DNA of 43,901 nt, from contig JANYAG010000048.1 in NCBI GenBank assembly GCA_025361465.1, forward strand, positions 1 through 43,901, in the 5' to 3' direction. The DNA is from Gemmatimonadota bacterium. Its GTDB lineage: Bacteria; Gemmatimonadota; Gemmatimonadetes; Gemmatimonadales; GWC2-71-9. Under the pieces are notes generated by a model, which was not told the origin of the DNA, did not search any database, and saw nothing but the letters and a program-made list of their open reading frames with translations. The position numbers were made by a program, and so were the translations under genes. Below, one piece after another: positions 2,485 through 27,146 of the stretch (position 1 is its first letter; each line of letters opens with the position of its first letter).

Positions 2485-2623
2485 GGTGCTCTCCTTCCTT
2501 TTCGTGACGTTCACACGAGTTGGTGCACCCAGCGCAATGGCCGGTGCATCCCCGGTGAGGGAACATGCCGTGGAGGACAAACAACGCCGCACACAACCCG
2601 ATGGCGATGACGGTTTGGCTCAC
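2474..2623 (-). CDS. Small Cys-rich membrane-anchored peptide (49 aa), similar in layout to FeoB-associated Cys-rich peptides
   Basis: The GTG start overlaps the rnfA stop (GTGA) and the stop overlaps the apbE start. Sequence MSQTVIAIGLCAALFVLHGMFPHRGCTGHCAGCTNSCERHEKEGEHHVG is a TM helix plus Cx3Cx2Cx3C. Confidence 0.7.
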   Translation of the reverse strand: MSQTVIAIGLCAALFVLHGMFPHRGCTGHCAGCTNSCERHEKEGEHHVG

Positions 2624-3198
2624 TGCGCGCTCCCCATGCCGGCGAAGCCCATGAACGCCATGGACAGGCACGACGCCACGACCAGCACCAGTCCCATGCG
2701 GCGCGCAATGACCGGCACGTCGGCCACTTCGATCCGTTCGCGGATCGAGGCCATCAGGGAGAGTGCCAGGGTCAGTCCGAGCCCGGCGCCGATGGCGAAC
2801 ACCAGCGATTCGATCAGGTTGTACCGGCGCGAGGTCTGGAACAGGGCCAGGCCGAGAATGGCGCAGTTGGTCGTGATCAGCGGGAGATAGATCCCCAGCT
2901 GCCGGAAGAGCACCGGGAAATGCTTCTTGACCGCCATCTCCACGATCTGCACGCCCGAGGCGACCACCACGATGAAGGCGATGGTGCGCAGGAACGGCGT
3001 CTGCATCAGCACGTAGGTGTTGAGCACCCAGGCGCCAACGGCGGTGAGCAGCAGCACGAAGGTATTCGCGAGGCCGAGGCGCCAGGCCGTCTCGATCTTC
3101 GCGGTGACGCCGAAGAAGGAGCACAGCCCCAGGAACATCACCAGGGTGAAGTTGTTGACCAGCAGGGTCGAGACGAAGATCCACGCCAGGTTGCTCAT
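2620..3198 (-). CDS. rnfA: Rnf electron transport complex subunit A
   Basis: LVNNFTLVMFLGLCSF and LGIYLPLITTNCAILG motifs; ATGA overlap with rnfE. Confidence 0.93.
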   Translation of the reverse strand: MSNLAWIFVSTLLVNNFTLVMFLGLCSFFGVTAKIETAWRLGLANTFVLLLTAVGAWVLNTYVLMQTPFLRTIAFIVVVASGVQIVEMAVKKHFPVLFRQLGIYLPLITTNCAILGLALFQTSRRYNLIESLVFAIGAGLGLTLALSLMASIRERIEVADVPVIARRMGLVLVVASCLSMAFMGFAGMGSAQ

Positions 3199-3875
3199 GC
3201 GGCCCTCTCGGCGCGACGACGGCGGAACTCGATGATCCCCGCCAGGCCGAGGAGCGCGATTCCGAGGGTCAGGAAGCCGCCCGGAGGCATCACCATGAAG
3301 ACCCATGGCTCGAAGCGCGGCCCGAGAAGGTCGTAGCCCAGCAACGAACCGTTGCCGAGCAGTTCGCGGATGGCACTCAACAGGGACAGCGAGAAGGTGA
3401 AGCCCAATCCCATCCCGACCCCGTCGGCAACGGCGCGCACCGGCCCGACCTTGGCGGCAAACGCCTCCGCCCGGCCGAGCAGGAGGCAGTTGGCCACGAT
3501 CAGGGGCATGAACGGCCCCAGCGCCTTGCTGATGTCGGGGAAGGTGGCGGCGAGGATCATGTCGGCCAGCGTCACGAAGGTGGCGATGACCAGGATGTAG
3601 GTGGTGATCCGCACTTCATGGGCGATGTACTTGGCCACCAGCGAGACGATCAACCCGGAACCGACCAGCACGAAGAGCGTCGCCATGCCCATCGCGATGC
3701 CGTTGGCGAGCGTATTGGTGACCGCCATGGTGGGACACATCCCGAGAAACTGCACCATCACCGGATTTTCGCGCAGGATGCCGCGCCAGATATCGGCGAC
3801 GACCGTCGCGGGCGGCGGCGTCCCGGGAACGAACTCCGGCGTGCTGGTGGATTGGTCGGTTGTGATGGCGGTCAC
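3195..3875 (-). CDS. rnfE: Rnf electron transport complex subunit E
   Basis: ENPVMVQFLGMCPTMAVT, PLIVANCLLLGRAEAFA, IRELLGNG and PPGGF motifs; GTG start overlaps the rnfG stop. Confidence 0.93.
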   Translation of the reverse strand: MTAITTDQSTSTPEFVPGTPPPATVVADIWRGILRENPVMVQFLGMCPTMAVTNTLANGIAMGMATLFVLVGSGLIVSLVAKYIAHEVRITTYILVIATFVTLADMILAATFPDISKALGPFMPLIVANCLLLGRAEAFAAKVGPVRAVADGVGMGLGFTFSLSLLSAIRELLGNGSLLGYDLLGPRFEPWVFMVMPPGGFLTLGIALLGLAGIIEFRRRRAERAA

Positions 3876-4543
3876 TTGGCCCCTCCCCGGTCCCACGCGT
3901 CGAGCAGCGGGCGCCACTTGGCCACCGCATTGTTGATGATCCGGATCACGGCCCGCGAGGAGATGGTCGCCCCGGTGATGGTCTGGACCTCGCTGGGCGG
4001 CTTCCCTGCGCGGCCCTTGACCCCTTGGAGCGGCACGACGCGTCCGGTGAACTGGGCACCAAACAGGGAGTCCTTCTCGATCTTGTCGCCGAGCCCCGGC
4101 GTCTCCTTTTGGTCGAGCACCTTGTATCCGATCAACGCCCCGCTCGAGGGGTCGAACCCGATCATCAGCGTCAGCAGTTCCTGGAATCCCGGTTCGCTGG
4201 CCGTGATCGCGACACCCACCCGCTTGGCGGAGGCATCGAACCCGACGAACGCCTTGGGAAGGTCGATCGGATCTGCGCCGGACGGGACGGTGCGGGTGAG
4301 CGCGCCGTTCACGAGGTAGAGCGTGTCCCAGCGCGCGGGCGCCTTGAGCACCTCGCTCACGGCGGCGCGTTGCTGCTCGGCCGCGTGCTTCTGCACCGCG
4401 GGCAGGGTCACCTTGTAGACCGATACGACCAGCCAGCCCGACAGGGCGCCGGCAACGGCCAGGGTCAGCAGCAGGCGCCACGCCGGCGTGCTCTTGCCGG
4501 GCGTGAGCACGGCGGGAGTGCCGTGTTGATGCGTCGCGGTCAT
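3872..4543 (-). CDS. rnfG: Rnf electron transport complex subunit G (FMN-binding)
   Basis: N-terminal TM anchor, ETPGLGDKI, flavinylation motif QTITGATISSRAV. Confidence 0.92.
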   Translation of the reverse strand: MTATHQHGTPAVLTPGKSTPAWRLLLTLAVAGALSGWLVVSVYKVTLPAVQKHAAEQQRAAVSEVLKAPARWDTLYLVNGALTRTVPSGADPIDLPKAFVGFDASAKRVGVAITASEPGFQELLTLMIGFDPSSGALIGYKVLDQKETPGLGDKIEKDSLFGAQFTGRVVPLQGVKGRAGKPPSEVQTITGATISSRAVIRIINNAVAKWRPLLDAWDRGGAK

Positions 4544-4547
4544 GCCA

Positions 4548-5951
4548 TCACCTCTGGACCACCACCGGATGGGGTTGCGGTGCCATGAGAGTCACCGGAG
4601 TCGGCTCCACTGCGCCGCGCGGCCTGACGCCTGGGTGGAAGCCAAGCGTCAACATCAGGGCCGCGAAGCCGATGATGTAGGCCGCGGTGACAAACCACCC
4701 TTCCTTGAGCCACCTGGCCGCATTGCGCCCTTCGGGATACATGCTGACGAGTGCCACGCCGGCCGATGAGCCGAACCAGATCATCGAGCCGCCAAACCCG
4801 ACGGTGTAGGCCAGAACGCCCCAGTCATAGCCGCCTTGCTTGAGCGCCAGCGCCGTCAGCGGAATGTTGTCGAACACCGCCGAGACGAAGCCGAGCCCGA
4901 ACGCCGATTGCCAGCCCGCGGCCGGCAGGCGCTCGACCGGCATCATCGAGGCGCACAGCACCAGCGAGAGGAGGAAGGCCGCGCCCTTGAGCGCGGCGGG
5001 CATCAGGCTCCATTCCGGCTTGCGCAGCACGGTGGTCCCCAGGATGGCGACCCACACCGCGGCGCCCAGGAAGGGGAAGCGGTCCGACGATTCGGTGAAG
5101 CGGGTGTTGATCACCACATTGACGATGATCGCCGCCACCAGGATGGAAAGCACCACCGCGACCCGCACCCAGTCCACCCGCGCGTTGGCCGCATCGGCGC
5201 GGTGGATCGGGGAGTAGCTGTGCTGCTTCAGGGCGGCCGGAATGCCGCAGACGAACATCGCGATGAACGAACCGCCGTAGCCGTGGAGCACTTGCAGCGG
5301 GGGCACGCCGGCGATCCACATCATCGTGGTGGTGGTGTCGCCGACGACGCTGCCGGCGCCGCCGGCATTCGAGGCCGCCACGATCGCCGCCAGGTAGCCG
5401 ATATGGATCTTGCCGCGGAAGACGGTGTGCGCCACCGCACCACCGATCAGCGCCGCGGCGATGTTGTCGAGGAAGCTGGAAAGGATGCAGATCATCCACA
5501 GCAGTGCGAAGCCGCCGAGCCAGCCGTCGGGCAGGTACTTGGGCAGCGCGGCCGGCACCTCGCTGTTCTCGAAATGCCTGGCCAGCAGGGCGAAGCCGAC
5601 CAGCAGCAGCAGCAGGTTGGTCAGGATCACCCACTCACTCTGGAGATGCAGCCCGAAGCCCGTGAGGCCGGCACCGGTCCGGAATGGCGACGCGACGATC
5701 TTGTAGATCGCGATGCCGACCGCACCGATGATGGCGACCTTCATGGTCTGGTTGTGCAGGATCGCCACGCCCGCCAGCACCAGGCCGAACAGGATGAACT
5801 CGATCGGCACCGGGCCGAGCTGCGGACCCGAGAACCCGATCTCCGAGGCCGCGGCGAAGGCCCGGCCAGGCGATGCGAGGAGCAACAAGGCCGCGATACC
5901 GAGTGGGCGCATGGTCACCTTGCGAAACATCGAGGTTGAACTCGCACTCAC
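4548..5951 (-). CDS. Ion transporter (IT) superfamily permease, NhaD/ArsB/CitMHS-like
   Basis: About 12 hydrophobic helices; SSFLDNIAAAL, ASNAGGAGSVVGDTTTTMMW, SAVFDNIPLT and GGSMIWFGSSAGV motifs. GTG overlaps the rnfD stop; alternative ATGs at 5930 and 5912. Confidence 0.85.
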   Translation of the reverse strand: MSASSTSMFRKVTMRPLGIAALLLLASPGRAFAAASEIGFSGPQLGPVPIEFILFGLVLAGVAILHNQTMKVAIIGAVGIAIYKIVASPFRTGAGLTGFGLHLQSEWVILTNLLLLLVGFALLARHFENSEVPAALPKYLPDGWLGGFALLWMICILSSFLDNIAAALIGGAVAHTVFRGKIHIGYLAAIVAASNAGGAGSVVGDTTTTMMWIAGVPPLQVLHGYGGSFIAMFVCGIPAALKQHSYSPIHRADAANARVDWVRVAVVLSILVAAIIVNVVINTRFTESSDRFPFLGAAVWVAILGTTVLRKPEWSLMPAALKGAAFLLSLVLCASMMPVERLPAAGWQSAFGLGFVSAVFDNIPLTALALKQGGYDWGVLAYTVGFGGSMIWFGSSAGVALVSMYPEGRNAARWLKEGWFVTAAYIIGFAALMLTLGFHPGVRPRGAVEPTPVTLMAPQPHPVVVQR

Positions 5952-6952
5952 CGTGAGCTCCCCGGGTGGGTGCCGAAGACGCGCGGTTGGGTCGCCCGGT
6001 TGATGAAGGGCACCAGGGCATTCATGAACAGGATGGCGTACATCACGCCCTCGGGCAGCCCGCCCCAGATGCGAATCACCACCACCAGCGCACCGATCCC
6101 GCCCCCGAACACCCAGCGACCACGATTGGTGACCGGTGAGGTCACCATGTCAGTGGCCATATACACCGCGCCAAGCATCAGTCCGCCGGAAAAGAGCATG
6201 AACAGGGCGTCAGGCCGGCGCGGATCCACGAGGTGGATCACGGTACTGAGCACCGCCACCATCACCAGGATGCTGACCGGGATGCGCCAATTGAGGTACC
6301 GCTTCCACGCCAGGAAGGCACCGCAGGCGAGGATCAGCAAGGCCGCCGTCTCCCCCACCGATCCTCCGGTATTGCCGATGATCAGGTGCATCAGCCCGGT
6401 GGTCTTCCCCTCGAACTTCAGGAGACCGAGCGGGGTCGCCGAGGTGACGGCATCGAGCGACGGACGGGTGAACGGAAAGGCGAAGAGATCGCCCTTGAGT
6501 TGCAAGAACGGGCCACCAACCGTTGGCCAGGTGGTGATGGCGACCGGAAAGGCGGCCTGCAGGAAGGCCCGTCCGATCAGCGCGGGATTGAAGACATTCT
6601 GGCCCAGGCCACCCCAGACGACCTTCCCGAAACCGATCCCGAACGCGCCGCCAAGAAACGCCATCCAGAGCGGCATGCCCGAGGGCAGCGACAGGCCGAG
6701 GAGCAGGCCGGTGATGACCGCCGAGCCATCGGCCAGGGTACCCCCGCGGCCAATCGTGCGCTCCGTCAGCAACGCGCCGAGCGACGAGGCGGCGATCACC
6801 AGCAGGGCGCCAATGCCGAAGAACCACCCGGCGGCCACGATGATCGGGACCAGCGAGCCGACCACGTTCCACATGATCACCGGCGTGGAGTCCTGCGAGC
6901 GAACATGCGGTGAGGCGGTGACAACCAGCTTGGGCGTAATCGATTGGCTCAT
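5948..6952 (-). CDS. rnfD: Rnf electron transport complex subunit D
   Basis: ASPHVR, DGSAVITGLLL, GGLGQNVFNPAL, flavinylation site DAVTSATPL, GGSVGET, MATDMVTSP, PEGVMYAIL; ATGA overlap with rnfC. Confidence 0.94.
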   Translation of the reverse strand: MSQSITPKLVVTASPHVRSQDSTPVIMWNVVGSLVPIIVAAGWFFGIGALLVIAASSLGALLTERTIGRGGTLADGSAVITGLLLGLSLPSGMPLWMAFLGGAFGIGFGKVVWGGLGQNVFNPALIGRAFLQAAFPVAITTWPTVGGPFLQLKGDLFAFPFTRPSLDAVTSATPLGLLKFEGKTTGLMHLIIGNTGGSVGETAALLILACGAFLAWKRYLNWRIPVSILVMVAVLSTVIHLVDPRRPDALFMLFSGGLMLGAVYMATDMVTSPVTNRGRWVFGGGIGALVVVIRIWGGLPEGVMYAILFMNALVPFINRATQPRVFGTHPGSSR

Positions 6953-8277
6953 GTGGCACCAGCCTTGACGCGCCGCAGCGCGGCCTTGCTCGCCTGGAAG
7001 AGCTGGGCAAGCGGAATGTTCGACGGGCAGACATAGGCGCACGAACCGCAGAGCATGCAATCGGCCAGGTGCTCGTCAACCATGTCCTTGAAGCGGTGCA
7101 CCCGGGCGAAGTCACCCAGGAGCGACGGATTGAGGAACACCGGACAGGCCTCGAGGCAACGCCCACAGTGGATGCAGGGATAGACCTTGTCGAGCCGGGT
7201 CTCGTGTTTCTCGAGCACCACCACTCCGGTGGTGCCCTTGACGACCGGCGCGTCCAGATTGGCCTGCGCCTGCCCCATCATCGGGCCGCCGATGATCACC
7301 TCGGCCGCATCGGGGGTCACGCCATCACAGAAGGCCAGCAGGTCGCGGAGCTTGGTGCCGACCGGGACGATCAGGTTGGCGGGACGGCGAAGGCCGTGCC
7401 CCGAGACGGTGACGATCCGCTCGATCAGCGGCAACCCGGTCTCGAACACCTCGGCGATGGCCGCCACCGAGCCGACGTTCTGCACCACCACCCCGACGCT
7501 CACCGGCAACTTGCCCGAGGGAACTTCGATCCCGGTCACTGCCTGGATCAGCATCTTCTCAGCACCCTGCGGGTACTTCACCGTCAGCGGCAGGATGGTG
7601 ATGTCGAGATCGGTCGGCAACGCCTGTTGCAGCGCCGCGATCGCGTCAGGCTTGTTCCGTTCGACGCCCACGACGCACTTGGGGACCCCCATGGATTGCA
7701 TCATGACCCGGATCCCGAACAGCACCCGGTCGGGGTACTCTGCCATGGTGCGATGGTCCGACGTCAGGTAGGGCTCGCACTCGGCCCCGTTGATGATCAG
7801 CGTGTGCACCACGAAGTCCGCCGGTGGAGCCAGCTTCACATGGGTCGGGAACGCCGCGCCCCCCAGCCCGACGACGCCGGCGTCCTGCACCGCCTGCACC
7901 ACCTGGTCGACCGTGAGTCCCTCCCAGTGCGGCACCATCCGCGGCCGGGTCATCTGGGGCGCGTAGCGGTCCACCTTGATCCGCACCGCCATCGCCATCG
8001 TCCCGTCGGGATGCGGCCACCAGCCGATGTCCGTCACCGTGCCGGACGCCGAGGCGTGGATCGGGACCGAGATCCAGCCATCGGCCAGACCGACCGGATC
8101 GCCGCGTTCGACATGGTCCCCCACCTTGACGCACAGCGTGGCCGGGTTGCCGGCGTGCTGCCGCAGCGGCAGGACAATCTCGTCGGGATACGGCATCCGT
8201 CGGATCGGGAGTTGACTGGTCAACTCCTTCTCTTCACGAGGATGCACACCGTGACGGAACCCTGAGGAGAGTCTCAT
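6949..8277 (-). CDS. rnfC: Rnf electron transport complex subunit C
   Basis: GVVGLGGAAFPTHVKL, INGAECEPYLTSD, KYPQGAEK, GGPMMG, and two CxxCxxCxxxCP motifs. Confidence 0.96.
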   Translation of the reverse strand: MRLSSGFRHGVHPREEKELTSQLPIRRMPYPDEIVLPLRQHAGNPATLCVKVGDHVERGDPVGLADGWISVPIHASASGTVTDIGWWPHPDGTMAMAVRIKVDRYAPQMTRPRMVPHWEGLTVDQVVQAVQDAGVVGLGGAAFPTHVKLAPPADFVVHTLIINGAECEPYLTSDHRTMAEYPDRVLFGIRVMMQSMGVPKCVVGVERNKPDAIAALQQALPTDLDITILPLTVKYPQGAEKMLIQAVTGIEVPSGKLPVSVGVVVQNVGSVAAIAEVFETGLPLIERIVTVSGHGLRRPANLIVPVGTKLRDLLAFCDGVTPDAAEVIIGGPMMGQAQANLDAPVVKGTTGVVVLEKHETRLDKVYPCIHCGRCLEACPVFLNPSLLGDFARVHRFKDMVDEHLADCMLCGSCAYVCPSNIPLAQLFQASKAALRRVKAGAT

Positions 8278-8284
8278 CCGATGA

Positions 8285-11200
8285 TCAATTGAACTTCGCC
8301 GCGCGTGCGATCCACTTCTCGAGGTCCTTCTCCTTGGAATTCAGCGGGGTGCCGGGATGGATGATCGCCACCGGGCAGCGCTCCGCGGCCGTGACCAACT
8401 GGGCGAACGTGCCAGCCTTGGGGTCCTTGATGACCGCCTGCTTGGTGGCGTTGTACACGAACATCTTCTTGTTGGCGTTGATGCATTCGTTGCACGTGGT
8501 GCAGCGCGCCGAATCGATCCACGGCGCAATGACCATGGCGTCGTCGTCTTCGGCCGTGGGCGCCGCGGCCACTGCGGCGACCGGGGCCTTGGCCGGCGCT
8601 GCCGAGGCCGGGACGTTCGTCACTGGTGCGGCGACCGGGGCGGCCCCGGCGGGCCGCGGCCGTGTCAACGCCGGCAACTCGGCCAGGAACTCCGCCACCG
8701 CCGCCGAGCCGCCAGCCTTGGTGAGCAGCGCCGACGCCAGCCGGCGCGCCATCTGCGCCGGATAGGTCGCGCGGAGGTCGGCCAGTTTCGCTTCATAGTC
8801 GGCCCGCAGCGAGGCCGTCCGGGTTTCGAATTCCGCCTCGACCGAGCTCGCCACCTGGTCGCGAACGCTCGGGGCGATCTCCAACCCGGCGAGTTGGCGC
8901 AGCTGTGACCAGAATTGCTGCCGCTCTTCCGCCAGGTGCACGATCTCGCTCGACACGCTGAGCCGGCGCAGCGTGCGATCCTTCGCGAGCGCCAGGATGT
9001 AGGGGGCATGACCATCGCGCTCCGCGGGGGCAAGCGCGAGATACTCGTGGAACGGCATCATCGCGTCGTCCCACGTGGTCGACGGCACCTCGGCGAAGTG
9101 TTGCTTGAAGCGGCCCTCGGTGGCGGCCCAATCGGCGATGGTCACCGGCAGTTCGAGGGTTTGCTCCGCCCCCGCGCCGTCGAGGTACTTCAACGTGTAG
9201 GTGGGCCAGGCGTCCTCGACCGAGGGATTGCCCTCGAGCGACAACTGGTCGGCATAGGTCGGCCCGGCCTCGGGGTCGAACGTGAGGAACGGGAACGCCC
9301 GGCTTTCCAGCGCCAGGCGAGCCGAGTGCTGCGACGAGTCGTCGGCCAGCCCGTGCTCGACCGGGCAGGGTGTGTACACATTGATCAGCACCGGGCGGCG
9401 CTTGTGCAGGCCCCTCAGCACGCCGCCAATCAGGTGCGACGCCGAGGCTTGCGACGTCTGGTGGACATAGACGCCGCGATGCGCGATGGCGATCAACGCC
9501 AGTTCCTTGCGGACTTCGGTCTTGCCATGCTGCGCCTTGCCGAAGCCGGACATGTCGGCCACCTGTCCCGTGAAGCCCGAGGTGCAGGCCTGGCCACCAG
9601 TGTTGGAGTACACCTGCGTGTCGAGCACCACGACGCGGATCGGCTTGCCGCTCGCCAGCAGGCGCGAGAGGTTCTGGAAGCCGATGTCGAGCATCGCGCC
9701 GTCGCCGCCCATCGCGACGATCGGCGGGCAGAGGGCGAATTCGTCGTCGGTGAACTGCTGCCAGGTGAGCAGCGCCAGGGCCGGTTCATGGAGCGCCGCG
9801 TCGTAGCCGCCGTCGGTCAGCAGTTCGGCGCGACGGATGAGGGCGAAGTTGTCCGCCATCTTGCGCATGTGGGCCTCGAACAGCCCGATCGCGACCGACG
9901 TCGAATCCTGGAAGAGATGGCTCACCCACGGGAACGGATACGGATTGTAGGGATAGGTGCCGCCCCAGACCGAAGAGCAGCCGGTGCTGTTGGCCATCCC
10001 CATCGGGGCACGCCCGGTGCCGCTCGGCCCCGCTTCGTAGCGCCACTTGAGGTCCTTCAGCGCGGCGATGGTGCGGTTGAGCAGCATCAGCTGCTCCTGC
10101 TTGGCCGCATCGATCGGCACGGCCACCGAGCCACCGCCCTGGGCGGCCGCATCGAGGTCGGCGCCCGAGGCGATCAGCTCACGCGCTTCCCGGTCAAGGG
10201 CAGCGAGCAGTTCGTCGAGATGGGCGACGTACCGCTCGATGCGCGGCTGCATCGACGCGAAGATCGAGGAGACGATCAGGTGGACCGCGGTCTTCTCGCC
10301 ACAGCCCATGCAGGCGCCGTCGCCGCCAACCATGGAACGGTAGGTGGCCTTCTTGAGCAGCAGCGAGGACAGCACGCCGATGCCCTCGTCCACATCGCTC
10401 ACGTTGACGAAGCGATTGTCGGTGTCGGGCAGCCGCTGCCAGATGGCCCAATTGCGGCGCAGCTGCTCGAGCGAGGCGTCATCCTGCCGGACCGACACGA
10501 GCGCGCCGTCGGGACAGACCTCGACGCAGAGATTGCACCCCTTGCAGGCCTCGGGATTGACCGTGATCGAGAGCAGGCCGCCGGAGCCCTTCTCCTTCCC
10601 TTCGATCGCGTCAAAGAACGGCCGGGTCCGCGCCACCGGGAACTCGGCCAGCCGCGGCTGCACCACCGCGAACTCCTGGTCGGTCGCCGCGCGACGATCG
10701 GCGTCCCACTTCAGCTTGTCCGCGACGGTCGCATAGCCCTTGGCGAACGCCTCGGTCACCGCCAGCGACGGCTCCTTGGCCAGGAGACGCTGGACTTCCT
10801 TGCCCCAGGGCTTGGCGACCGGCCGCAGGCGATCGACCGTGTGACTGGTGGCCGCCGCTCCGATCGCCGCAGTGATGACCTCCTCGGGGCTGTTGACCAG
10901 CCCGGGGATGGCGGCATCGGGACACTGGGTCCAGCACTGCGCACAGCCGGTGCAGTTGGCGGCCACGAACGCCGGGATCTCCATCCGCACGCCGCTCATG
11001 TCGCGCACCGCGCCGGTGGCGGCCGGGATCGCGCTGATCGCCGCAAACGGATCGGCGATGCCGTCCTGCCCCATCACGCAGAGCGAACACACCTGCTCCC
11101 AGAACCGGCCCGGATTGCCGATGCCCTGCTGGGCGTCGATCACGTCGAGCGAGCCGGGAATGTGCGGGACGGTGCCGAGCGCCATGCTCGCCTCGACCGC

Positions 11201-13321
11201 CGTGGCATCCACCACCAGCACCTGGTCAAACCCGCGGCGAATGACGCGGAGGTTGTCTTCCACCACCGCCTCGCCGCGATGGCCGAACTTCTTCTTGAAC
11301 TGGGCACGGATGCCCTCGAACAGGCGGGCTTCGGTCGTCTCCTCGCGCTGCAGCAGCGGCGAGGTGTTGAAGAAGGCCCCGAGGAACGCCGCACCCTGCA
11401 TCCGGTAGCGCAACTCGACGTCGGACGCTTCTTCCCGCGCGATGGCGAAGGCGTCGAGCACATAGACCCGGATCTTCCGCTCGCGGATGGTCGCGCGCGC
11501 CTGGGCCGGAAGGGTGAGCCAGAACTCGGCCGGGCTCAGGTCGCTCTGGATCACGAAGACGCCACCCGCGGCGAGGCCGGCGAGCGGATCGCTGTGCCGG
11601 AAGACATTCGGGTCGGGCGAGAGGACGACATCGACGTGCCGGAGTTCGCAGTTGAGGCGCACCGGCTCGTGCGACAGCACGGCATAGAACGTCGTCGGCT
11701 GACCCTTCTTTTCCGAGCCGTACTTGGGATTGGCCTTGATCTGCATCCCGAAGAGCTCGAACGCCGTCATCGCGAGGTTCTTGCCCATCGTGATGGCGCC
11801 CCAGCCACCGACGGAGTGGATCCGCACCGCGGTCGAGCCTTCGGGCAGGAGGTTCAGGTCGCCGGCCGACGTGAGCGACAGCTCCCCGATCTCGGGATAG
11901 CTGTCGAGCATCCGTTCCTGCCAGATCTGCAACTTCGGGAGCTTGGTCTCGCGGCGGATGAAGTCGATGCCCAGGTAGAACTGGCGCTTCTGGGCGCCCT
12001 TGGGCAGCATGTTGTCGACGGCCGCGACGATATCGCCGGGCTGCAGGTCGCGGCTGCCGAGGCCGAAACAGCCGGAATGGAAGTTGGGCACCTGGCCTGC
12101 GCCGAGCGCGGCGAGCCCCGGGAATGCGACGGCGCCGCCGGTCGCGACGCGGCCGTTCTCGACCGCCTGCGAGATGGCCGAGCGGATTTCGCGCAGCAGC
12201 GGGGGATCAACAGCCAGCGGCTGGTCGGTACGCTCGAGGACGACGACAGCCTTCTTGCCGGCGAGGGCATGACTGATCAGGTCGGCCGGGAACGGCCGGA
12301 ACATCGTCAGGTTGAGGACACCAATTGCCAGGCCACGCGTGGCGCGCAGGTGATCGACCACCGCCTCGGCATTGGCGACGACCGAGCCCTGTCCGACGAT
12401 CACGTATTCCGCATCGTCGAGACGGTAGCCGGAGACCCGGGCGTACCGGCGACCGGTGAGGGCGGCGAACTCGGCGAACGCCTGGTCGGTCAGGCTGGTG
12501 ATGTGATCGAAATAGAAGGGCCGCTGGGCGGCGACACCTTGGGCGTAGCTGTCCTGGTTCTGCACCACGCCGAGCATCGCCGGGTAATCGAAGTCGAACA
12601 TCTCCGGAATCCGGCGGCGCATCTCCCCGAACACCAGGCGCTGTGACGGCGTCGGCGAGGGGATCATGTCGGCGGGATCGCCGAGATACGTCTTGATGAG
12701 TTCGCGCTCCGGGAGGAGGAGCGACTCGATCACATGGGAGGTGAGGAAGCCGTCCTGGGCGCAGATGCCCGGGTTGAGCGACAGCTCGGCGATCCGGTGG
12801 GCGACCAGGTTGAGGTCGGCCGCTTCCTGGACATCCTTGGCGAACAGCTGGAAGAAGCCGGTGTCGTCGACCGCGTGATAGTCATCGTGACCGGCGTGGA
12901 CATTGAGGGCGTGCTTGGTCATCGCGCGGGCGGCGATGTTGAGCACATACGTCAGCCGCTTGCCGACGGCCGCGTAGAGCGACTCGTGCATGTAGGCGAT
13001 GCCCTGCCCGCTCGAGAAGTTGGTCGCGCGCAGGCCGGACATCGCCATCCCGGCGGTGACCGCGGCGGCGGCATGCTCGCCTTCGGGTTCGAAGAAGAGG
13101 AGGCGCCGGCCGTTGACGTTCAGCTTCCCTTCGGCGACCGCCTGGGCCCACCCTTCACCCATCTGGGTGGAGGGAGTGATCGGATAGGCGCCGGCCGCCT
13201 CGCCGGCGGCAATCTCCATGGCCACGACCGCGGCGCTGCCGTCGAGCGCCTCCAGCGTGCCGGGATAGCGCGGCGTTTCGGGCGCCTTGGAACTGCGCGG
13301 ACTGCGAAGAATCGACGTCAT
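8285..13321 (-). CDS. Large fused pyruvate/2-oxoacid:ferredoxin oxidoreductase (NifJ/PFOR-like, 1678 aa) with an extra C-terminal ferredoxin domain
   Basis: AYPITPS, NPKYGSEKKG, CTGCAQCWTQCP, CKGCNLCVEVCP, GACMGCGE, ANSTGCSSVWGG, GGDG...DTQVYSNTGGQ, and C-terminal CTTCNEC...RCP. ATG13321 overlaps the rnfB stop (ATGA). Confidence 0.92.
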   Translation of the reverse strand: MTSILRSPRSSKAPETPRYPGTLEALDGSAAVVAMEIAAGEAAGAYPITPSTQMGEGWAQAVAEGKLNVNGRRLLFFEPEGEHAAAAVTAGMAMSGLRATNFSSGQGIAYMHESLYAAVGKRLTYVLNIAARAMTKHALNVHAGHDDYHAVDDTGFFQLFAKDVQEAADLNLVAHRIAELSLNPGICAQDGFLTSHVIESLLLPERELIKTYLGDPADMIPSPTPSQRLVFGEMRRRIPEMFDFDYPAMLGVVQNQDSYAQGVAAQRPFYFDHITSLTDQAFAEFAALTGRRYARVSGYRLDDAEYVIVGQGSVVANAEAVVDHLRATRGLAIGVLNLTMFRPFPADLISHALAGKKAVVVLERTDQPLAVDPPLLREIRSAISQAVENGRVATGGAVAFPGLAALGAGQVPNFHSGCFGLGSRDLQPGDIVAAVDNMLPKGAQKRQFYLGIDFIRRETKLPKLQIWQERMLDSYPEIGELSLTSAGDLNLLPEGSTAVRIHSVGGWGAITMGKNLAMTAFELFGMQIKANPKYGSEKKGQPTTFYAVLSHEPVRLNCELRHVDVVLSPDPNVFRHSDPLAGLAAGGVFVIQSDLSPAEFWLTLPAQARATIRERKIRVYVLDAFAIAREEASDVELRYRMQGAAFLGAFFNTSPLLQREETTEARLFEGIRAQFKKKFGHRGEAVVEDNLRVIRRGFDQVLVVDATAVEASMALGTVPHIPGSLDVIDAQQGIGNPGRFWEQVCSLCVMGQDGIADPFAAISAIPAATGAVRDMSGVRMEIPAFVAANCTGCAQCWTQCPDAAIPGLVNSPEEVITAAIGAAATSHTVDRLRPVAKPWGKEVQRLLAKEPSLAVTEAFAKGYATVADKLKWDADRRAATDQEFAVVQPRLAEFPVARTRPFFDAIEGKEKGSGGLLSITVNPEACKGCNLCVEVCPDGALVSVRQDDASLEQLRRNWAIWQRLPDTDNRFVNVSDVDEGIGVLSSLLLKKATYRSMVGGDGACMGCGEKTAVHLIVSSIFASMQPRIERYVAHLDELLAALDREARELIASGADLDAAAQGGGSVAVPIDAAKQEQLMLLNRTIAALKDLKWRYEAGPSGTGRAPMGMANSTGCSSVWGGTYPYNPYPFPWVSHLFQDSTSVAIGLFEAHMRKMADNFALIRRAELLTDGGYDAALHEPALALLTWQQFTDDEFALCPPIVAMGGDGAMLDIGFQNLSRLLASGKPIRVVVLDTQVYSNTGGQACTSGFTGQVADMSGFGKAQHGKTEVRKELALIAIAHRGVYVHQTSQASASHLIGGVLRGLHKRRPVLINVYTPCPVEHGLADDSSQHSARLALESRAFPFLTFDPEAGPTYADQLSLEGNPSVEDAWPTYTLKYLDGAGAEQTLELPVTIADWAATEGRFKQHFAEVPSTTWDDAMMPFHEYLALAPAERDGHAPYILALAKDRTLRRLSVSSEIVHLAEERQQFWSQLRQLAGLEIAPSVRDQVASSVEAEFETRTASLRADYEAKLADLRATYPAQMARRLASALLTKAGGSAAVAEFLAELPALTRPRPAGAAPVAAPVTNVPASAAPAKAPVAAVAAAPTAEDDDAMVIAPWIDSARCTTCNECINANKKMFVYNATKQAVIKDPKAGTFAQLVTAAERCPVAIIHPGTPLNSKEKDLEKWIARAAKFN

Positions 13322-14157
13322 GCTTCCGTGCTCCCAGCCAAAGACGGCATGCGGACGAATTGCGCTCCGTCCAGCCATACGATCGCGCCGGTCGGACAGC
13401 GGGTCACTGCCTGCCGATCGGCCTGTGCGTTGAGTTCATAGTTCACTGTCGCCACACCACTGCTGACACTGATCAGTCCCGGCGCGGCATCCTGCACGCA
13501 CTTGCCGCAGGTCGTGCACGCCACCTGACACTGGTCCAGCACCTCGTCGCCGGCGAGGAGGTTCTTGCACTGCACCAGGAGCCGTTGTTCCACGGGCTGG
13601 AGCACGAACAGTCCCTTCGGGCAGGCCTCGACGCAGTCACCACACGCAGTGCAGGTGACCGGGTCGACCACCGGGAGCCCGGTGTCGCTCATCGTGATCG
13701 CCTTGAAGGCGCACACCCGAGCGCAATCGGCGAGGGAGAGGCAGCCCCAGGCGCAGCCCTTCCCGCCTCCGGCCACGGCCGCGGCCGCGGCACACGTGGG
13801 GAGCCCGCGGTATTCGGCCTGCGACACCGCGACGTCGGTTCCGCCGGCACAGAGCAGTCGCGCGACGCGCCGCTGTGCGGTCCCCGCCGCGACGCCGAGG
13901 AAACCGGCAATCGCCTTGTGCACATCATCGCTGCCCACCGAACACTTCGTCGGCGCGATGATCCCCTCAACCGCCTGCTCGGCAAACGCCCGGCAGCCCG
14001 GCAGCCCGCACGCGCCACAGTTGGCGTTGGGCAGCATCGAGGCGACCGCGTCGATCCGGGGATCTTCCCAGACCCACAGCTTCCGGTTGGCCAGCGCGAT
14101 GAAGACCGCGAAGACCAGCCCCACTCCACCAACAATCAGGATCGCGAGCAGTGTCAT
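13318..14157 (-). CDS. rnfB: Rnf electron transport complex subunit B (polyferredoxin)
   Basis: N-terminal TM, EDPRID, LPNANCGACGLPGC, CAWGCLSLADCARVC, CTACGDCVEACP, CTTCGKC...CPTGAI. Confidence 0.92.
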   Translation of the reverse strand: MTLLAILIVGGVGLVFAVFIALANRKLWVWEDPRIDAVASMLPNANCGACGLPGCRAFAEQAVEGIIAPTKCSVGSDDVHKAIAGFLGVAAGTAQRRVARLLCAGGTDVAVSQAEYRGLPTCAAAAAVAGGGKGCAWGCLSLADCARVCAFKAITMSDTGLPVVDPVTCTACGDCVEACPKGLFVLQPVEQRLLVQCKNLLAGDEVLDQCQVACTTCGKCVQDAAPGLISVSSGVATVNYELNAQADRQAVTRCPTGAIVWLDGAQFVRMPSLAGSTEA

Positions 14158-14179: not shown

Positions 14180-15181
14180 TCAGCTCTCCCCCAGCCCGGA
14201 TGCACCAAGCAGCCACGCCGCGATCTTCTCCACCGCATCGTCGCCGCTGCCTGCGCGCGGAGCCGATCCGGCACTCGCCGGCGCGGCGATCGGTGCGCGA
14301 GCCAGATCTTCCAGCATGGTTCGGTCTTCCGCCATCTGCCAGGCGCTCATGCCACTGATGGCACGCTTGGGCACCTCGCCCAGCGTCCCCACCGTCAACC
14401 GCTGCCACGGCTCGCGCCCGGCGGCCGGGTCGTGGCAGAAGACCGCGGCGCCGGCCGGCATCACCGCCCCGATCGCCGGCCCGTCAGACAGGGCGACCCG
14501 ATCGAGTCCGCTGCCGTCGATGGTCTGCAACACCAGCGTACCGGGGGTGATGCAGCGCGCGAGTGGCGCCGGCGCCGACGCGCCCCGCACCACCAGCACG
14601 ATCTTCTCGCGACCGTCGGCAAAATCACTCAGGGCCCCGACGTGCAGGTCGGCCCCGTCGAGCGAGACGATCAGGGGCGGGGCGTACCGCCGCTCGGTCT
14701 TGCCCCAGGCACGGAAGTCCAGCGGATCGAGCAACCGATCATGCTCGCTGGCCTGGTAGCGTCCCCCGCGCACCACATCGGTCAGGATCACCGCACCAAA
14801 TGCCCGCCCGAATTCCGCCAGCGCGTCGTTGACCGTGGCACCCAGTCGGCCGCCCGTGGGGAGAGCGATCAGGAAGGCATCCGTGCCGCGCTCGGCGATC
14901 GCGCGCAGCGTGGCGCTGGCACGAGTGAGCGCGGCCACCGCCGCGGGGGACACCGGCGGCACCGCGGGGAAGAGCGTGGCGAACCGCGCCGCGTCCACCC
15001 GGCCGGCTGCAAATTGTCCCAGTGCAATCCCGGCGCGACCGGCCTGCTGACTGCTGTCGGCGGCCTGCTCCGCGAGGAACGCTTCGGCGAGGGCGAGGGC
15101 GCGTTGAATGATCGCGCGAAATTCGGCGATCGGCCGCTCCATGGCCGCCGTGGCCAGGGCAAAGCGCGCGTCAGACGGCAT
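14180..15181 (-). CDS. Hypothetical protein, apparent degenerate paralogue of the PFOR TPP-binding domain
   Basis: The 333-aa ORF fills the korB-rnfB gap with an 11-nt overlap to korB. It shares colinear blocks with the PFOR in this window (see findings). Confidence 0.8.
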   Translation of the reverse strand: MPSDARFALATAAMERPIAEFRAIIQRALALAEAFLAEQAADSSQQAGRAGIALGQFAAGRVDAARFATLFPAVPPVSPAAVAALTRASATLRAIAERGTDAFLIALPTGGRLGATVNDALAEFGRAFGAVILTDVVRGGRYQASEHDRLLDPLDFRAWGKTERRYAPPLIVSLDGADLHVGALSDFADGREKIVLVVRGASAPAPLARCITPGTLVLQTIDGSGLDRVALSDGPAIGAVMPAGAAVFCHDPAAGREPWQRLTVGTLGEVPKRAISGMSAWQMAEDRTMLEDLARAPIAAPASAGSAPRAGSGDDAVEKIAAWLLGASGLGES

Positions 15182-23847: not shown

Positions 23848-24894
23848 TCAGCGGCCTGGCTCGTCCTCGGGCCGCCGCAGGGCGTGCAGCAGCAGCAAGG
23901 CACTGGTGAAGAGCAGGACGGCCATGCCCTGGTGCACCACCCCCAGAACCACCGGCACCATGAGCAGCAGGGTCGCGATGCCGAGCGACAGCTGCAGCAG
24001 TCCCGCGACCGCCAGCCACCCCAGCAGGCGTCGCGTGAGAGGCGAGAGTGCCTGGTGGCGCGCCCGCCACCACAACCCCAGGATCGACAGCACCGTCACA
24101 ATGGCGAGCAGGCGGTGGTCGAACTGCACCGCGCCGGGATTCTCGAACAGGTTGCGCCACCACGGGGAGAAGGCGCCATATCCGGCTGGGACGACCTGGT
24201 CGCCCATCAGGGGAAAGGTGTTGAACACCCGCCCGGCCCGCAGGCCGGCGACGAAGGCGCCGGCGATGGCGGTCAGCACGGTCAGCACGGTGATTGCCCA
24301 CGCCCCGCGCCGCAGCACACGTTCATCCGGGGTCAGCCTGGCGCGCGGCCGCGCCAGGAAATCCGCCGCGGTCCAGACCGTGGCGCCATAGATCAGCAGC
24401 GCGGCCGCGAGGTGTGCCGCCAACCGGTACTGGCTCACCTCGGTGCGGGCGCTGAGCCCGCTCGAGACCATGAACCAGCCCAGCGCGCCCTGCGCCCCGA
24501 GCAGGATGAGCAGCAACCAGAGCCGGCGGCCCATTCCGCGTGGCACCATCCCGCGCACCAGGAAGACCACCAGCGGAATCGCGAACGCGAGGCCGACGAG
24601 GCGTGCCCAGAGACGGTGGGTGTATTCCCAGAGGAAGATCCGCTGGAACTGCGCCAGGGTCATTCCGGCGTGGATCGCGGCGTACTGCGGGATTTGGCGG
24701 TACTGGGTGAAGGCGTCGTTCCACTGCTCGGCACCGATCGGCGGAATAACCCCGGTGACCGGCTTCCACTCGGTGATAGACAGGCCGCTTTCGGTGAGGC
24801 GGGTGGCGCCGCCGATCACGATCAGGGTAAGGAGCATCGCGGCCCAGAGCGCAAGCCAGCGGCCGAGCGGACGGGCGGGCCCAGCCAGGGTCAT
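23848..24894 (-). CDS. ctaA: Heme A synthase, COX15/CtaA type 2
   Basis: IGGATRLTESGLSITEWKP, WEYTHRLWAR, QGALGWFMVSSGL, YRLAAHL, VQFDHR, VVHQ. Confidence 0.93.
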   Translation of the reverse strand: MTLAGPARPLGRWLALWAAMLLTLIVIGGATRLTESGLSITEWKPVTGVIPPIGAEQWNDAFTQYRQIPQYAAIHAGMTLAQFQRIFLWEYTHRLWARLVGLAFAIPLVVFLVRGMVPRGMGRRLWLLLILLGAQGALGWFMVSSGLSARTEVSQYRLAAHLAAALLIYGATVWTAADFLARPRARLTPDERVLRRGAWAITVLTVLTAIAGAFVAGLRAGRVFNTFPLMGDQVVPAGYGAFSPWWRNLFENPGAVQFDHRLLAIVTVLSILGLWWRARHQALSPLTRRLLGWLAVAGLLQLSLGIATLLLMVPVVLGVVHQGMAVLLFTSALLLLHALRRPEDEPGR

Positions 24895-27146
24895 GGGCGA
24901 CGGCGCTGCAGCGCGATCTCGATGCGGGCGGCCAGGGCGCGCGGGCGGAACGGCTTGGAGATGAAGTCGGTCGCACCGAGGCGCAGCGAGCGCACCTCGT
25001 TGTCCTCATCCCCGCGCGCGGAGACGACGAGGATCGGCAGGTCGGCCGTCTGCGTGCGCGAGCGCAGCTGGGTCAGCACCGTGAAGCCGTCGACATTCGG
25101 CAGGTTCAGGTCGAGGAGCACGATATCGGGATTGTGGCGATCCATCTGCTCGAACGCCTCCGATCCGTCGCGCGCTTCAAAGATCAGGTAGCCCTCGGCC
25201 TCGAGCAGGTCGCGCATCACCCGCCGGAGCTGGTCCTCGTCTTCGACCAGCAACACGGTCGCCTTGGTGCCTTCCCCCGGCGCGTTCGTCTCGACGTGCC
25301 CTTCGTCGACCAGCTCGATGTCCTCAAGCAATTGATCGGTGGACTCCGCCAGCTCCACCACCGGCTCGACCGGCTCGCGCACGGCCGAGCGCCCCTTCCC
25401 CTTGGGCCGCGGACGGTTCTGCGGCAACGCCAGCCCGCGCGTGCGCGCCTGCCCCTCGAGGGGAATGTCCGTGACACGCAGGACTTCATCGACGGAGGTG
25501 TCGCCCTCGATCGCGTGGCGGATCGCGCAATCGAAGAGGGTGCGCATCCCCTCGGACTGGGCCGCCTCGGCCAGTTCGTTGGCCATCGCGTTGGCACCGA
25601 CGAGCCGCTCCAGCTCGACGCTCATCACCAGGATCTCGACGATCGAGAAGCGCCCGCGATAGCCGGTCTGGGTGCACTGGCCACAGCCCACGGGCTTCCA
25701 GAGCGTCGCCTTCTTGGGGATGAACGGCTGGATGCGCGCGGGCAGGTCGGCATGGGCCATCGGCGTGCGGCACACCGGACAGAGCCGCCGCATCAGGCGC
25801 TGCGCCACGACGCCCCGCAAGGAGGCGCCGAGCTTGAACGCCTCCAATCCCATGTCCACGAGGCGGGTCACCGTGCTCGGCGCGTCGTTGGTGTGCAGCG
25901 TCGACAGCACCAGGTGGCCGGTCAGCGACGCCTGAATGGCGATCTGCATCGTCTCGAGGTCGCGGATTTCGCCGACCAGGACGATATCGGGATCCTGCCG
26001 CAGGATGGAGCGGAGCGCGGTCGAAAAGGTGAGCCCCGCCTTTTCGTTGGTCTGCACCTGCACGATGTTCTTGCCAAGCCGGTATTCGACCGGATCTTCC
26101 ACCGTGACGATGTTGATCCCCTCGGCCTGGATCTGCTTGATGCAGGCGTAGAGGGTGGTGGTCTTGCCGGAACCGGTCGGCCCGGTGCAGAGAATCACCC
26201 CTTCCTTGTTCGTCAGCAGTTGCTTGATGACATCGCGGTCGTCCTCGTAGAGACCGAGGGAATCGAGTGACAGCATCGTCTGCTGGGTATTCAGGATGCG
26301 GATGACGACCTTTTCGCCGTGCTGCGCCGGGAGCGTGGAGATGCGCAGGTCGATCGGCGCTTCACCGACGGATACCCGTGCGCGGCCATCCTGCGGCCGC
26401 AGGCGGTCGGCGATGTCGAGCCCGGACATGATCTTGATGCGCGAGATTAGCGGAATGCCGGCCTTGCGCGGGATGGTCATCGCCTGCCGCAGCACGCCAT
26501 CGATGCGGTAGCGCACCAGGACGGCCGCCTCGGCCGATTCGATATGGATATCACTCGCCCGCGACGTGATGCCGTCGTGGAGCAGCACGTCGACCAGCTT
26601 GATGATCGGCCGAGAACTCGCCTCGACCTCAACCGCCGCGACGTCGAGATCCTCGACATCCTCTTCGATCGCCGTGAGATCGACATTCTCCATGCCCACG
26701 AGCAGCTCGGCCACGCTGCCGCGGCGCTCCTTGCCATACAGCTCGTCGAGTTTCGCGCGAATGCGGGGCGGCGAGGCCAGCGAGACCCTGACCTCCCGCC
26801 CGGTGGCAAACGCCAGTGACTGCTCGGCGCCGATATCGAACGGATTGGAGGTGGCCACCTCGAGCAGCGCGTCGCTCACCTGCAGCGGAATCAGCAGGTG
26901 TCGCCGCGCCAGCGATTCCGGCACTGCGTCAAGGGCTGCCTGGGTCGCGGCAGAAAGGTCGGCGACGGGCAGGCGGCATCGCGCCGAGAGGGCGGCGAGG
27001 ATCTCGGCCTCCGGCAGCAGGCGCATGTCGATCACCCGCTCCCAGAGCGAGCCCTTCATGTCGCCTTCAGCACGCAGCGGCTCGAGCGCCCCTTCCGACA
27101 GCAGGGGCGAGATGATCGCAGCAAGCCAGTCGTCGTTATACGTCAT
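24891..27146 (-). CDS. PilB/GspE-family secretion ATPase fused to a C-terminal response-regulator receiver domain
   Basis: ASDIHIE, Walker A GPTGSGKTT, TVEDPVEY, LRQDPDIVLVGEIRD, TGHLVLSTLHTND, CPVC...CGQC; receiver motifs VLLVEDE, LLDLNLP, VSA, SKPF. Confidence 0.92.
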   Translation of the reverse strand: MTYNDDWLAAIISPLLSEGALEPLRAEGDMKGSLWERVIDMRLLPEAEILAALSARCRLPVADLSAATQAALDAVPESLARRHLLIPLQVSDALLEVATSNPFDIGAEQSLAFATGREVRVSLASPPRIRAKLDELYGKERRGSVAELLVGMENVDLTAIEEDVEDLDVAAVEVEASSRPIIKLVDVLLHDGITSRASDIHIESAEAAVLVRYRIDGVLRQAMTIPRKAGIPLISRIKIMSGLDIADRLRPQDGRARVSVGEAPIDLRISTLPAQHGEKVVIRILNTQQTMLSLDSLGLYEDDRDVIKQLLTNKEGVILCTGPTGSGKTTTLYACIKQIQAEGINIVTVEDPVEYRLGKNIVQVQTNEKAGLTFSTALRSILRQDPDIVLVGEIRDLETMQIAIQASLTGHLVLSTLHTNDAPSTVTRLVDMGLEAFKLGASLRGVVAQRLMRRLCPVCRTPMAHADLPARIQPFIPKKATLWKPVGCGQCTQTGYRGRFSIVEILVMSVELERLVGANAMANELAEAAQSEGMRTLFDCAIRHAIEGDTSVDEVLRVTDIPLEGQARTRGLALPQNRPRPKGKGRSAVREPVEPVVELAESTDQLLEDIELVDEGHVETNAPGEGTKATVLLVEDEDQLRRVMRDLLEAEGYLIFEARDGSEAFEQMDRHNPDIVLLDLNLPNVDGFTVLTQLRSRTQTADLPILVVSARGDEDNEVRSLRLGATDFISKPFRPRALAARIEIALQRRRP

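Follow-up and report, generated by a model that had tools for sequence, protein, structure and literature searches.

Between the genes of a 2-oxoacid:ferredoxin oxidoreductase (OFOR) and those of an Rnf complex, a Gemmatimonadota contig (JANYAG010000048.1 of assembly GCA_025361465.1) encodes a protein of 333 residues, here called X (P0001). What is this protein, where does it come from, and what does it do among these neighbors? The contig was analyzed as one stretch of 43,901 nucleotides—hereafter the window—in which gene X occupies positions 14180..15181 of the minus strand. An earlier note on this DNA had read X as a catalytically dead duplicate of the domain that binds thiamine diphosphate (ThDP) in a pyruvate:ferredoxin oxidoreductase (PFOR) encoded close by—a long form of this enzyme (P0002) with 1697 residues. 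The open reading frame (ORF) and the peptides quoted in support of this reading were all found in place, in X or in the PFOR. Profile homology, the predicted fold, the lost cofactor motifs, and the specificity for the long PFOR subtype bear the claim out: X is very probably a degenerate, cofactor-less paralogue of PFOR domain VI, and its translation comprises an N-terminal helical bundle followed by a degenerate ThDP domain of the pyrophosphate-binding (PP) type.

Curated protein families do not capture X. Scans of Pfam and NCBIfam gave zero matches at E<=1, PF02775 (TPP_enzyme_C) and TIGR02177 (PorB_KorB) included; the Rnf subunit models of both collections leave X unmatched, with its neighbors matching the RnfB, C, D, and A/E models, and a search of the ESM Atlas returned nothing usable. 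Scoring of 8000 candidates yielded 703 homologues at E<=1e-3, and the family holds at least 420 cluster representatives at 50% identity. Alignment A1 was built from 101 full-length-looking sequences among 150 listed representatives, and 0/101 of them match a ThDP family of Pfam at E<=1. A pseudogene or a remnant of gene fission was considered and rejected, as the frames are intact in 30/30 genomes—internal stops are absent from all 30 full-length genomic matches—and the structural models are confident. Two longer public protein records (P0286, 651 residues; P0287, 603 residues) were likewise considered as fusions of KorB with X or of X with RnfB and were rejected as frameshifted read-throughs; they contain long out-of-frame stretches rich in Arg, Ser, and Pro and look like frameshift artefacts of high-GC assemblies.

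Taken as single sequences, X and the long PFOR appear to share a borderline similarity. The best high-scoring segment pair of BLASTP joins X 130-182 to PFOR 1184-1233 at an E-value of 0.094. A Smith–Waterman alignment over the full lengths scores 57 against 50.9±6.7 for shuffled sequences and is equalled by 85/500 shuffles—not significant—with its best path running through an Ala-rich stretch elsewhere; confined to X 100-300 and PFOR 1100-1430, the alignment scores 55 against 33.6±5.0 and is equalled by 2/1000 shuffles. The BLASTP value and the full-length result would both be expected if the likeness were a product of chance or composition in a genome of 68% G+C and X were unrelated to PFOR. 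A search of the PDB sequences with the A1 profile, in which PFOR and ThDP proteins are absent at E<=10, points the same way.

The borderline similarity of the single sequences is settled by a test at the family level. Alignment A1 was compared by hhalign with alignment A2, which holds 27 domain VI segments (PFOR residues 1100-1430) of long PFORs from related genomes. The two match at an E-value of 9.8e-6 and a probability of 82.5% over 151 colinear columns, in which X 120-270 (14372..14824, minus strand) corresponds to PFOR 1170-1387 (9218..9871, minus strand; template range 71-288 in A2). Against the score of 46.8, 100 column shuffles of A2 reach 15.0±3.0 (maximum 24.3), 100 block shuffles 15.7±2.7 (maximum 22.5), and the reversed alignment 18.2; the real score lies about 10 standard deviations over the 200 shuffles. 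All four colinear blocks that the earlier note had aligned by eye recur in this alignment in the same register, and the best BLASTP segment falls at the same place. Of the pairwise shuffle check that this note had proposed, the full-length version failed, while the comparison of domain with domain and, above all, that of the family profiles upheld the relation. Common to X and the long PFOR subtype are X 130-170 with PFOR 1180-1230 and a F-x-[HY]-D-P-x-x-G motif. When run over whole genomes, the A1 profile also gives weak secondary matches, to its positions 120-197, in four genomes (E 2.1e-5 to 8.4e-4); these matches sit in long open frames at the positions of the long-PFOR matches.

Structure prediction leads to the same domain. 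For full-length X, AlphaFold2 with A1 yields a model with a pLDDT of 94.0 and a pTM of 0.86, composed of a helical bundle of about residues 1-100 (14882..15181, minus strand; DSSP helices 5-103) and an alpha/beta domain. A Foldseek search with this model fills its first 15 rows with PFOR or oxalate oxidoreductase beta chains, if with weak statistics (best E 4.2e-3), and realignment of the candidates places 194-198 residues on chain positions 806/812-1170 of 6cio_D and 2c3y_B—that is, on domain VI—with a Z-score of 8.2. An unbiased scan with the whole model ranks generic helical bundles level with PFOR (Z 6.9-7.9), an effect of the N-terminal domain of X. Hence, residues 98-300 were modeled alone, using 28 sequences of genomic loci (alignment A8; pLDDT 90.8). 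Against 48,161 representative chains, this domain model ranks PFOR 6cin_A first (Z 8.0, 159/203 residues, root-mean-square deviation 5.0, chain 826-1170), with the next row at Z 5.7; judged by title, 45/50 listed rows are ThDP enzymes (ranks 1-43, 46, and 47). Foldseek also puts PFOR on top for the domain model (E 1.4e-3, probability 0.94). As modeled, the domain has the three-layer alpha/beta architecture of the ThDP PP-type fold and can be superposed on domain VI, which is the outcome that the earlier note had predicted for such a check.

A Z-score of about 8 would be unremarkable alone; what gives the fold evidence its weight is, in our judgment of these models, the uniformity of the list and its agreement with the sequence alignment. 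An independent structure prediction that picks PFOR domain VI from so many chains, a profile score far outside its shuffles, and a colinear alignment over the entire matched region leave an accidental likeness barely credible. X and the long PFOR's domain VI are homologous and have a common fold. The bundle of residues 1-100 matches generic helical bundles only (Z 6-8). Set against the long PFOR's helical insert, it scores 17.4 in a restricted hhalign run against 11.6±2.2 for shuffles (maximum 18.1), which is not significant; permissive settings produce a colinear alignment at zero confidence.

Which properties of the ThDP domain does X retain? In functional PP domains, a GDG-X(24-27)-N(N) motif binds Mg2+ and the diphosphate of ThDP. 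X fails this test, as the first Gly is never present and the Asn-bearing loop is deleted. The GGDGA of PFOR aligns with SLDGA in X, leaving a relic L174-D175-G176 (14654..14662, minus strand) opposite the PFOR GDG; within A1, column 174 is V/L/I/T with G in 0/101 sequences, column 175 is D in 54/101, and column 176 is G in 96/101. X has no equivalent of the PFOR segment that runs from DTQVYSNTGGQ to the following strand: about 13 residues of X bridge an alignment gap of about 40 residues. Cys columns that are invariant or near-invariant are absent among the 101 sequences of A1, and the two Cys of X itself fall in columns with Leu in 94/101 and Val in 61/101 members; the ligands of the proximal [4Fe-4S] cluster of the long PFOR (CxxC, STGC, TPCP) have no conserved equivalents in the X family. 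The degraded GDG, the missing loop, and the missing cluster cysteines, all three of which the earlier note had pointed out, are hence confirmed by the hhalign alignment and the column counts. Lacking the first Gly, the Mg/ThDP loop, and conserved Cys, X can bind neither ThDP nor an Fe-S cluster in the canonical way; its sequence rules out ThDP/Mg2+ binding of the canonical kind as well as the proximal [4Fe-4S] cluster. As X reaches none of the curated models and has neither the GDG...N motif nor the cysteines for the cluster, it is classed as a degenerate derivative of a PP-type domain and not as a ThDP enzyme.

The site of the lost loop carries the best-conserved stretch of the family. Residues 200-219 (14525..14584, minus strand), which lie opposite the gap at the PFOR ThDP/Mg loop, follow the Pro-rich consensus G-x3-PAPLARLITPGTFVxQ and are located at the former cofactor edge of the sheet; conservation among the 101 sequences reaches 99 for A205, 100 for L207, 99 for P213, 99 for V217, and 101 for Q219. 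Further conserved residues are W159, E163, R164, D189, R209, H250, and R261. The remodeled pocket might have gained a new ligand-binding or catalytic function—for instance, binding of a nucleotide, CoA, or a phosphate compound by X as a sensor or regulator of the surrounding module. This would fit the conservation peak at the former cofactor site, the conserved Arg, His, Asp, Glu, and Gln, and the partial retention of the Asp-Gly of GDG. Yet Pfam, NCBIfam, and the PDB sequence search matched X to no ligand-binding family, and the Asp is too variable for an essential metal ligand, which together make a ligand site quite improbable in our view.

Among the PP domains at hand, the long PFOR stands out as the likely source of X. 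Compared with A1, the KorB family of the operon gives an E-value of 0.1 over 13 columns—no match—and domain VI of ordinary PFORs of about 1200 residues from the same phylum (alignment A7, 18 sequences) gives 0.41 over 22 columns; weighing against a firm reading of these figures, the compared profiles differ in alignment depth, so that their E-values can be set side by side only loosely. The domain VI profiles of long and ordinary PFORs recognize each other at 5.5e-30, and KorB and the long PFOR at only 0.0045. The best-matching stretch of X (120-170) falls in a region in which indels set long PFORs apart from ordinary ones. As X matches the long PFOR and neither the ordinary PFORs nor KorB, a local duplication is suggested, and the sequence comparisons point to the long PFOR's own domain VI as its origin.

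If X is a remnant of a catalytic domain, why has it been kept? A first answer comes from its surroundings. On the minus strand, the genes follow each other in the order korA, korB, X, rnfB, long PFOR, rnfC, rnfD, a membrane ORF, an rnfE-like ORF, an rnfA-like ORF, and apbE. The korB-type OFOR beta subunit (P0004; 15171..16214, minus strand) matches PF02775 at 2.2e-27 and TIGR02177 at 2.9e-70 and has an intact GDG...DN motif. Its stop is overlapped by the X start by 11 nt, and a GGAG lies 11 nt 5' of the X start in the window sequence; the rnfB ATG follows 22 nt past the X stop. The rnfB gene itself is of a long polyferredoxin type (13318..14157, minus strand, with 14157 as the likely ATG of an ORF reaching to 14274) and matches PF04060, Fer4, and, with E-values of about 1e-50 to 1e-60, the RnfB models of NCBIfam. 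This arrangement recurs across genomes: korB lies immediately 5' of X in 30/30 loci, with an overlap of 8 nt, and rnfB immediately 3' in 29/29 loci with enough flank.

The distribution of X was followed through 201 genomes spread evenly over the phylum Gemmatimonadota. X is present in 31/201, and exactly the same 31 genomes carry RnfB (E<=1e-97) and KorB (E<=1e-130) of the operon type; with weaker paralogues, KorB matches rise to 133/201, a tally that includes one unpublished genome (G182). The long PFOR, sought with its C-terminal 598 residues at E<=1e-140, is likewise found in 31 genomes, of which 30 are common with X. In the genome that has X but no match to the long PFOR (G109), the contig stops about 1.3 kb past rnfB and, therefore, the PFOR query region cannot be present there. 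The reverse case is a one-contig genome (G136; locus L061, C1:3926000-3945900), whose long PFOR is 67% identical, matching only to residue 1544, and stands without X; KorB, X, RnfB, and other rnf genes are absent within about 8 kb, and weak KorA/KorB matches occur only inside the PFOR frame. X thus co-occurs in strict order with the operon and is, therefore, part of the module, and the module korAB-X-rnfB-PFOR-rnf is inherited as one block. Homologues occurring independently of PFOR/Rnf clusters, which the earlier note had named as a finding that would speak against its reading, did not turn up in these genomes: X is found only inside this module.

Outside the sample, the picture is similar. 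Named members of the X family are from Gemmatimonadota, and 38 X loci in public genomes, gathered by a single-protein scan, all lie in metagenome-assembled genomes (MAGs)—mostly labeled Gemmatimonadales or Gemmatimonadaceae—with no cultured carrier among them. X homologues of 52-72% identity are seen in MAGs labeled Bacillota, Vicinamibacteria, Acidobacteriota, or Gammaproteobacteria (L087, L101, L107, L109, L112, L114, L115), which could be due to mis-binning, mislabeling, or lateral transfer of the module. Another RnfB-like gene (36-41% identity) occurs in 12 genomes of another family, all of which are without an X match; rnfC, D, E, and A are absent within about 9 kb in the 3/3 loci examined (L080-L082, from G008, G022, and G032), where these genes appear to be solitary polyferredoxins and not Rnf subunits.

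The earlier note had proposed X as a scaffold or asymmetric partner for docking PFOR or KorAB to RnfB; in this version, X would be an adaptor with RnfB as its main contact, by which KorAB and/or PFOR would be attached to the Rnf complex. It would agree with the invariant position of rnfB directly 3' of X and with the restriction of X to genomes that have this RnfB orthologue (31/31), and a docking aid is conceivable for KorAB, which in Pfam scans has no ferredoxin-type domain of its own. The same co-occurrence holds, however, for KorB and, in 30/31 genomes, for PFOR, and it is korB to which X is coupled by an overlapping stop and start, whereas rnfB begins only after a gap. We hence regard an adaptor centered on RnfB as unlikely.

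X also differs from its neighbors in its rate of change. Relative to the proteins encoded in the window, homologues of X have a median identity of 41%, those of RnfB one of 64%, and those of KorB one of 67%; in 27/28 loci X is the most divergent of the three, which marks it as the fastest-evolving one. Faster divergence is the usual pattern of non-catalytic subunits. It would also agree with a transient helper—an assembly chaperone that occupies the face of the pyrimidine-binding (Pyr) domain of KorA or PFOR until a cofactor-loaded PP domain docks, or a cap that protects the oxygen-labile clusters of these predominantly aerobic bacteria. A cofactor-less mimic of a PP domain might be well suited to surfaces that bind PP domains, and O2-sensitive Fe-S enzymes can have protective partners. 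The tight translational coupling suggests stoichiometric production instead, and such a helper seems improbable.

On balance we lean, if only slightly, toward X as a cofactor-less domain VI paralogue that has been kept, without catalytic function, as an accessory subunit of the module korAB-X-rnfB-PFOR-rnfCD(G)EA, the subunit role itself being the inferred part. According to this reading, X would be made in step with KorB—as the overlapping stop and start suggest—and would assemble as a structural subunit without catalysis. In genuine PP domains, the cofactor face meets the partner domain. In X, the remodeled former cofactor face might hold a component of the electron-transfer assembly of 2-oxoacid:ferredoxin oxidoreductase and RnfB, and low-potential electrons might then be exchanged by the oxidoreductases and Rnf, at its ferredoxin-entry arm, with no need for a freely diffusing carrier.

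Several points weigh against this reading. KorA and the Pyr-type domain I of PFOR are already paired with intact PP domains, so that a free place for a pseudo-PP domain is hard to see. Co-occurrence cannot tell which of KorAB, PFOR, and RnfB is the partner of X, given that the whole module is passed on together. The polar residues E163, R164, D189, R209, Q219, H250, and R261, invariant or nearly so, could belong to a binding site for a new ligand or to a catalytic site as readily as to an interface. A bona fide fusion of X with any neighbor, as might betray its partner, is absent from the search for longer homologues. Also, the Foldseek E-values of 1.4e-3 to 4e-3 and Z-scores of about 8 are modest in absolute terms. 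A complex prediction of X with KorB 30-347 and RnfB 27-280, run as a single job free of controls, returned ipSAE values of 0.00 and 0.00 and weighs neither way.

A more far-reaching version of the accessory-subunit reading is a physical supercomplex, in which X, a pseudo-PP-domain scaffold descended from PFOR, would fasten to RnfB both a dedicated KorAB and the giant PFOR, the latter with its ferredoxin domain on a flexible Ala/Pro tether. We consider this doubtful. If true, the oxidation of 2-oxoacids, or reductive carboxylation, would exchange electrons with the ion-pumping Rnf in the absence of free ferredoxin; this would connect low-potential metabolism with the membrane in a so far undescribed manner, and in a phylum that is mostly aerobic.

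The remaining genes of the operon complete this picture. The korA-type OFOR alpha subunit (P0005; 16124..18148, minus strand) matches TIGR03710 at 3.1e-161, over its cut-off. The long PFOR between rnfB and rnfC (8285..13378, minus strand) matches POR_N, PFOR_II, POR, Fer4, TPP_enzyme_C, and Fer4_13, and its TIGR02176 score of 401 bits lies under the cut-off of 911. Compared with ordinary PFORs of the same phylum, it has about 80 extra residues (approximately 1045-1125) between the CxxC and STGC cluster motifs. Its C-terminus (approximately 1570-1674) bears an Ala/Pro-rich linker and then a single-cluster Fer4_13 domain, which from its sequence looks like a tethered ferredoxin. The PFOR of G136, which stands apart from rnf genes, is without linker and ferredoxin tail; from this one genome comes a hint that tail and Rnf context belong together. 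Pfam matches identify rnfC (6949-8277), rnfD (5948-7060), the rnfA-like ORF (2620-3306), and apbE (1492-2592), all on the minus strand. Between rnfD and the rnfE-like ORF lies a polytopic membrane ORF of 467 residues (P0285; 4548-5951, minus strand), for which Pfam has no match at E<=0.1. The rnfE-like ORF (428 residues; 3195-4481, minus strand) is covered by the Rnf-Nqr (RnfE/A-type) model over residues 231-408 only, and its first approximately 230 residues could be a fused or divergent RnfG or reflect a start called too far upstream; Pfam recognizes no separate rnfG in the operon. Upstream, trigger factor and clpX lie on the opposite strand. Elsewhere in the window, at 24891-27146 (minus strand), a type II/IV secretion ATPase (T2SSE and MshEN) bears a C-terminal response-regulator receiver domain.

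With these results, a fold and an evolutionary origin are now assigned to an unannotated family of at least 420 clusters. The way in which large redox machines are put together or controlled is often explained by dead paralogues of enzyme domains retained as subunits. The unusual operon, with a PFOR between rnfB and rnfC and a private KorAB, makes a direct coupling of oxidoreductase and Rnf testable; and should X be only a minor accessory factor, a clean annotation is still gained. We know of no dead PP-domain subunit in the OFOR family, and full-text searches, covering titles accessible without subscription, returned descriptions neither of a PFOR inside an rnf operon nor of a dead PP-domain subunit.

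Three known systems come close to X. The nearest is PFOR domain VI itself, as in Moorella thermoacetica (6cin/6cio), Desulfovibrio africanus (2c3y), and the Gemmatimonadota subtype of 1,700 residues, which has the same fold and, in the latter subtype, a colinear profile homology of about 150 residues. Unlike domain VI, X is a stand-alone protein with an extra N-terminal helical bundle and is without the first Gly of GDG (101/101), the Mg/ThDP loop of about 40 residues, and conserved [4Fe-4S] cysteines. The OFOR beta subunits—KorB/PorB, the oxalate oxidoreductase beta chain (5exd/5c4i), and the Sulfolobus enzymes (5b46-5b48)—are, like X, separate polypeptides made of a PP domain only and encoded beside an alpha subunit, and they match X structurally at Z 4.7-7.1. 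KorB, in contrast to X, keeps its cofactor and cluster motifs, and the profile relation between the two spans just 13 columns. Finally, the "inactive beta4 tetramer" of a split-gene transketolase (6yaj), which also figures among the structural matches listed for X, is, like X, a ThDP-fold protein without catalytic competence. That protein is half of an active enzyme and still pairs into an active site, whereas X is permanently degenerate and exists alongside intact PP domains.

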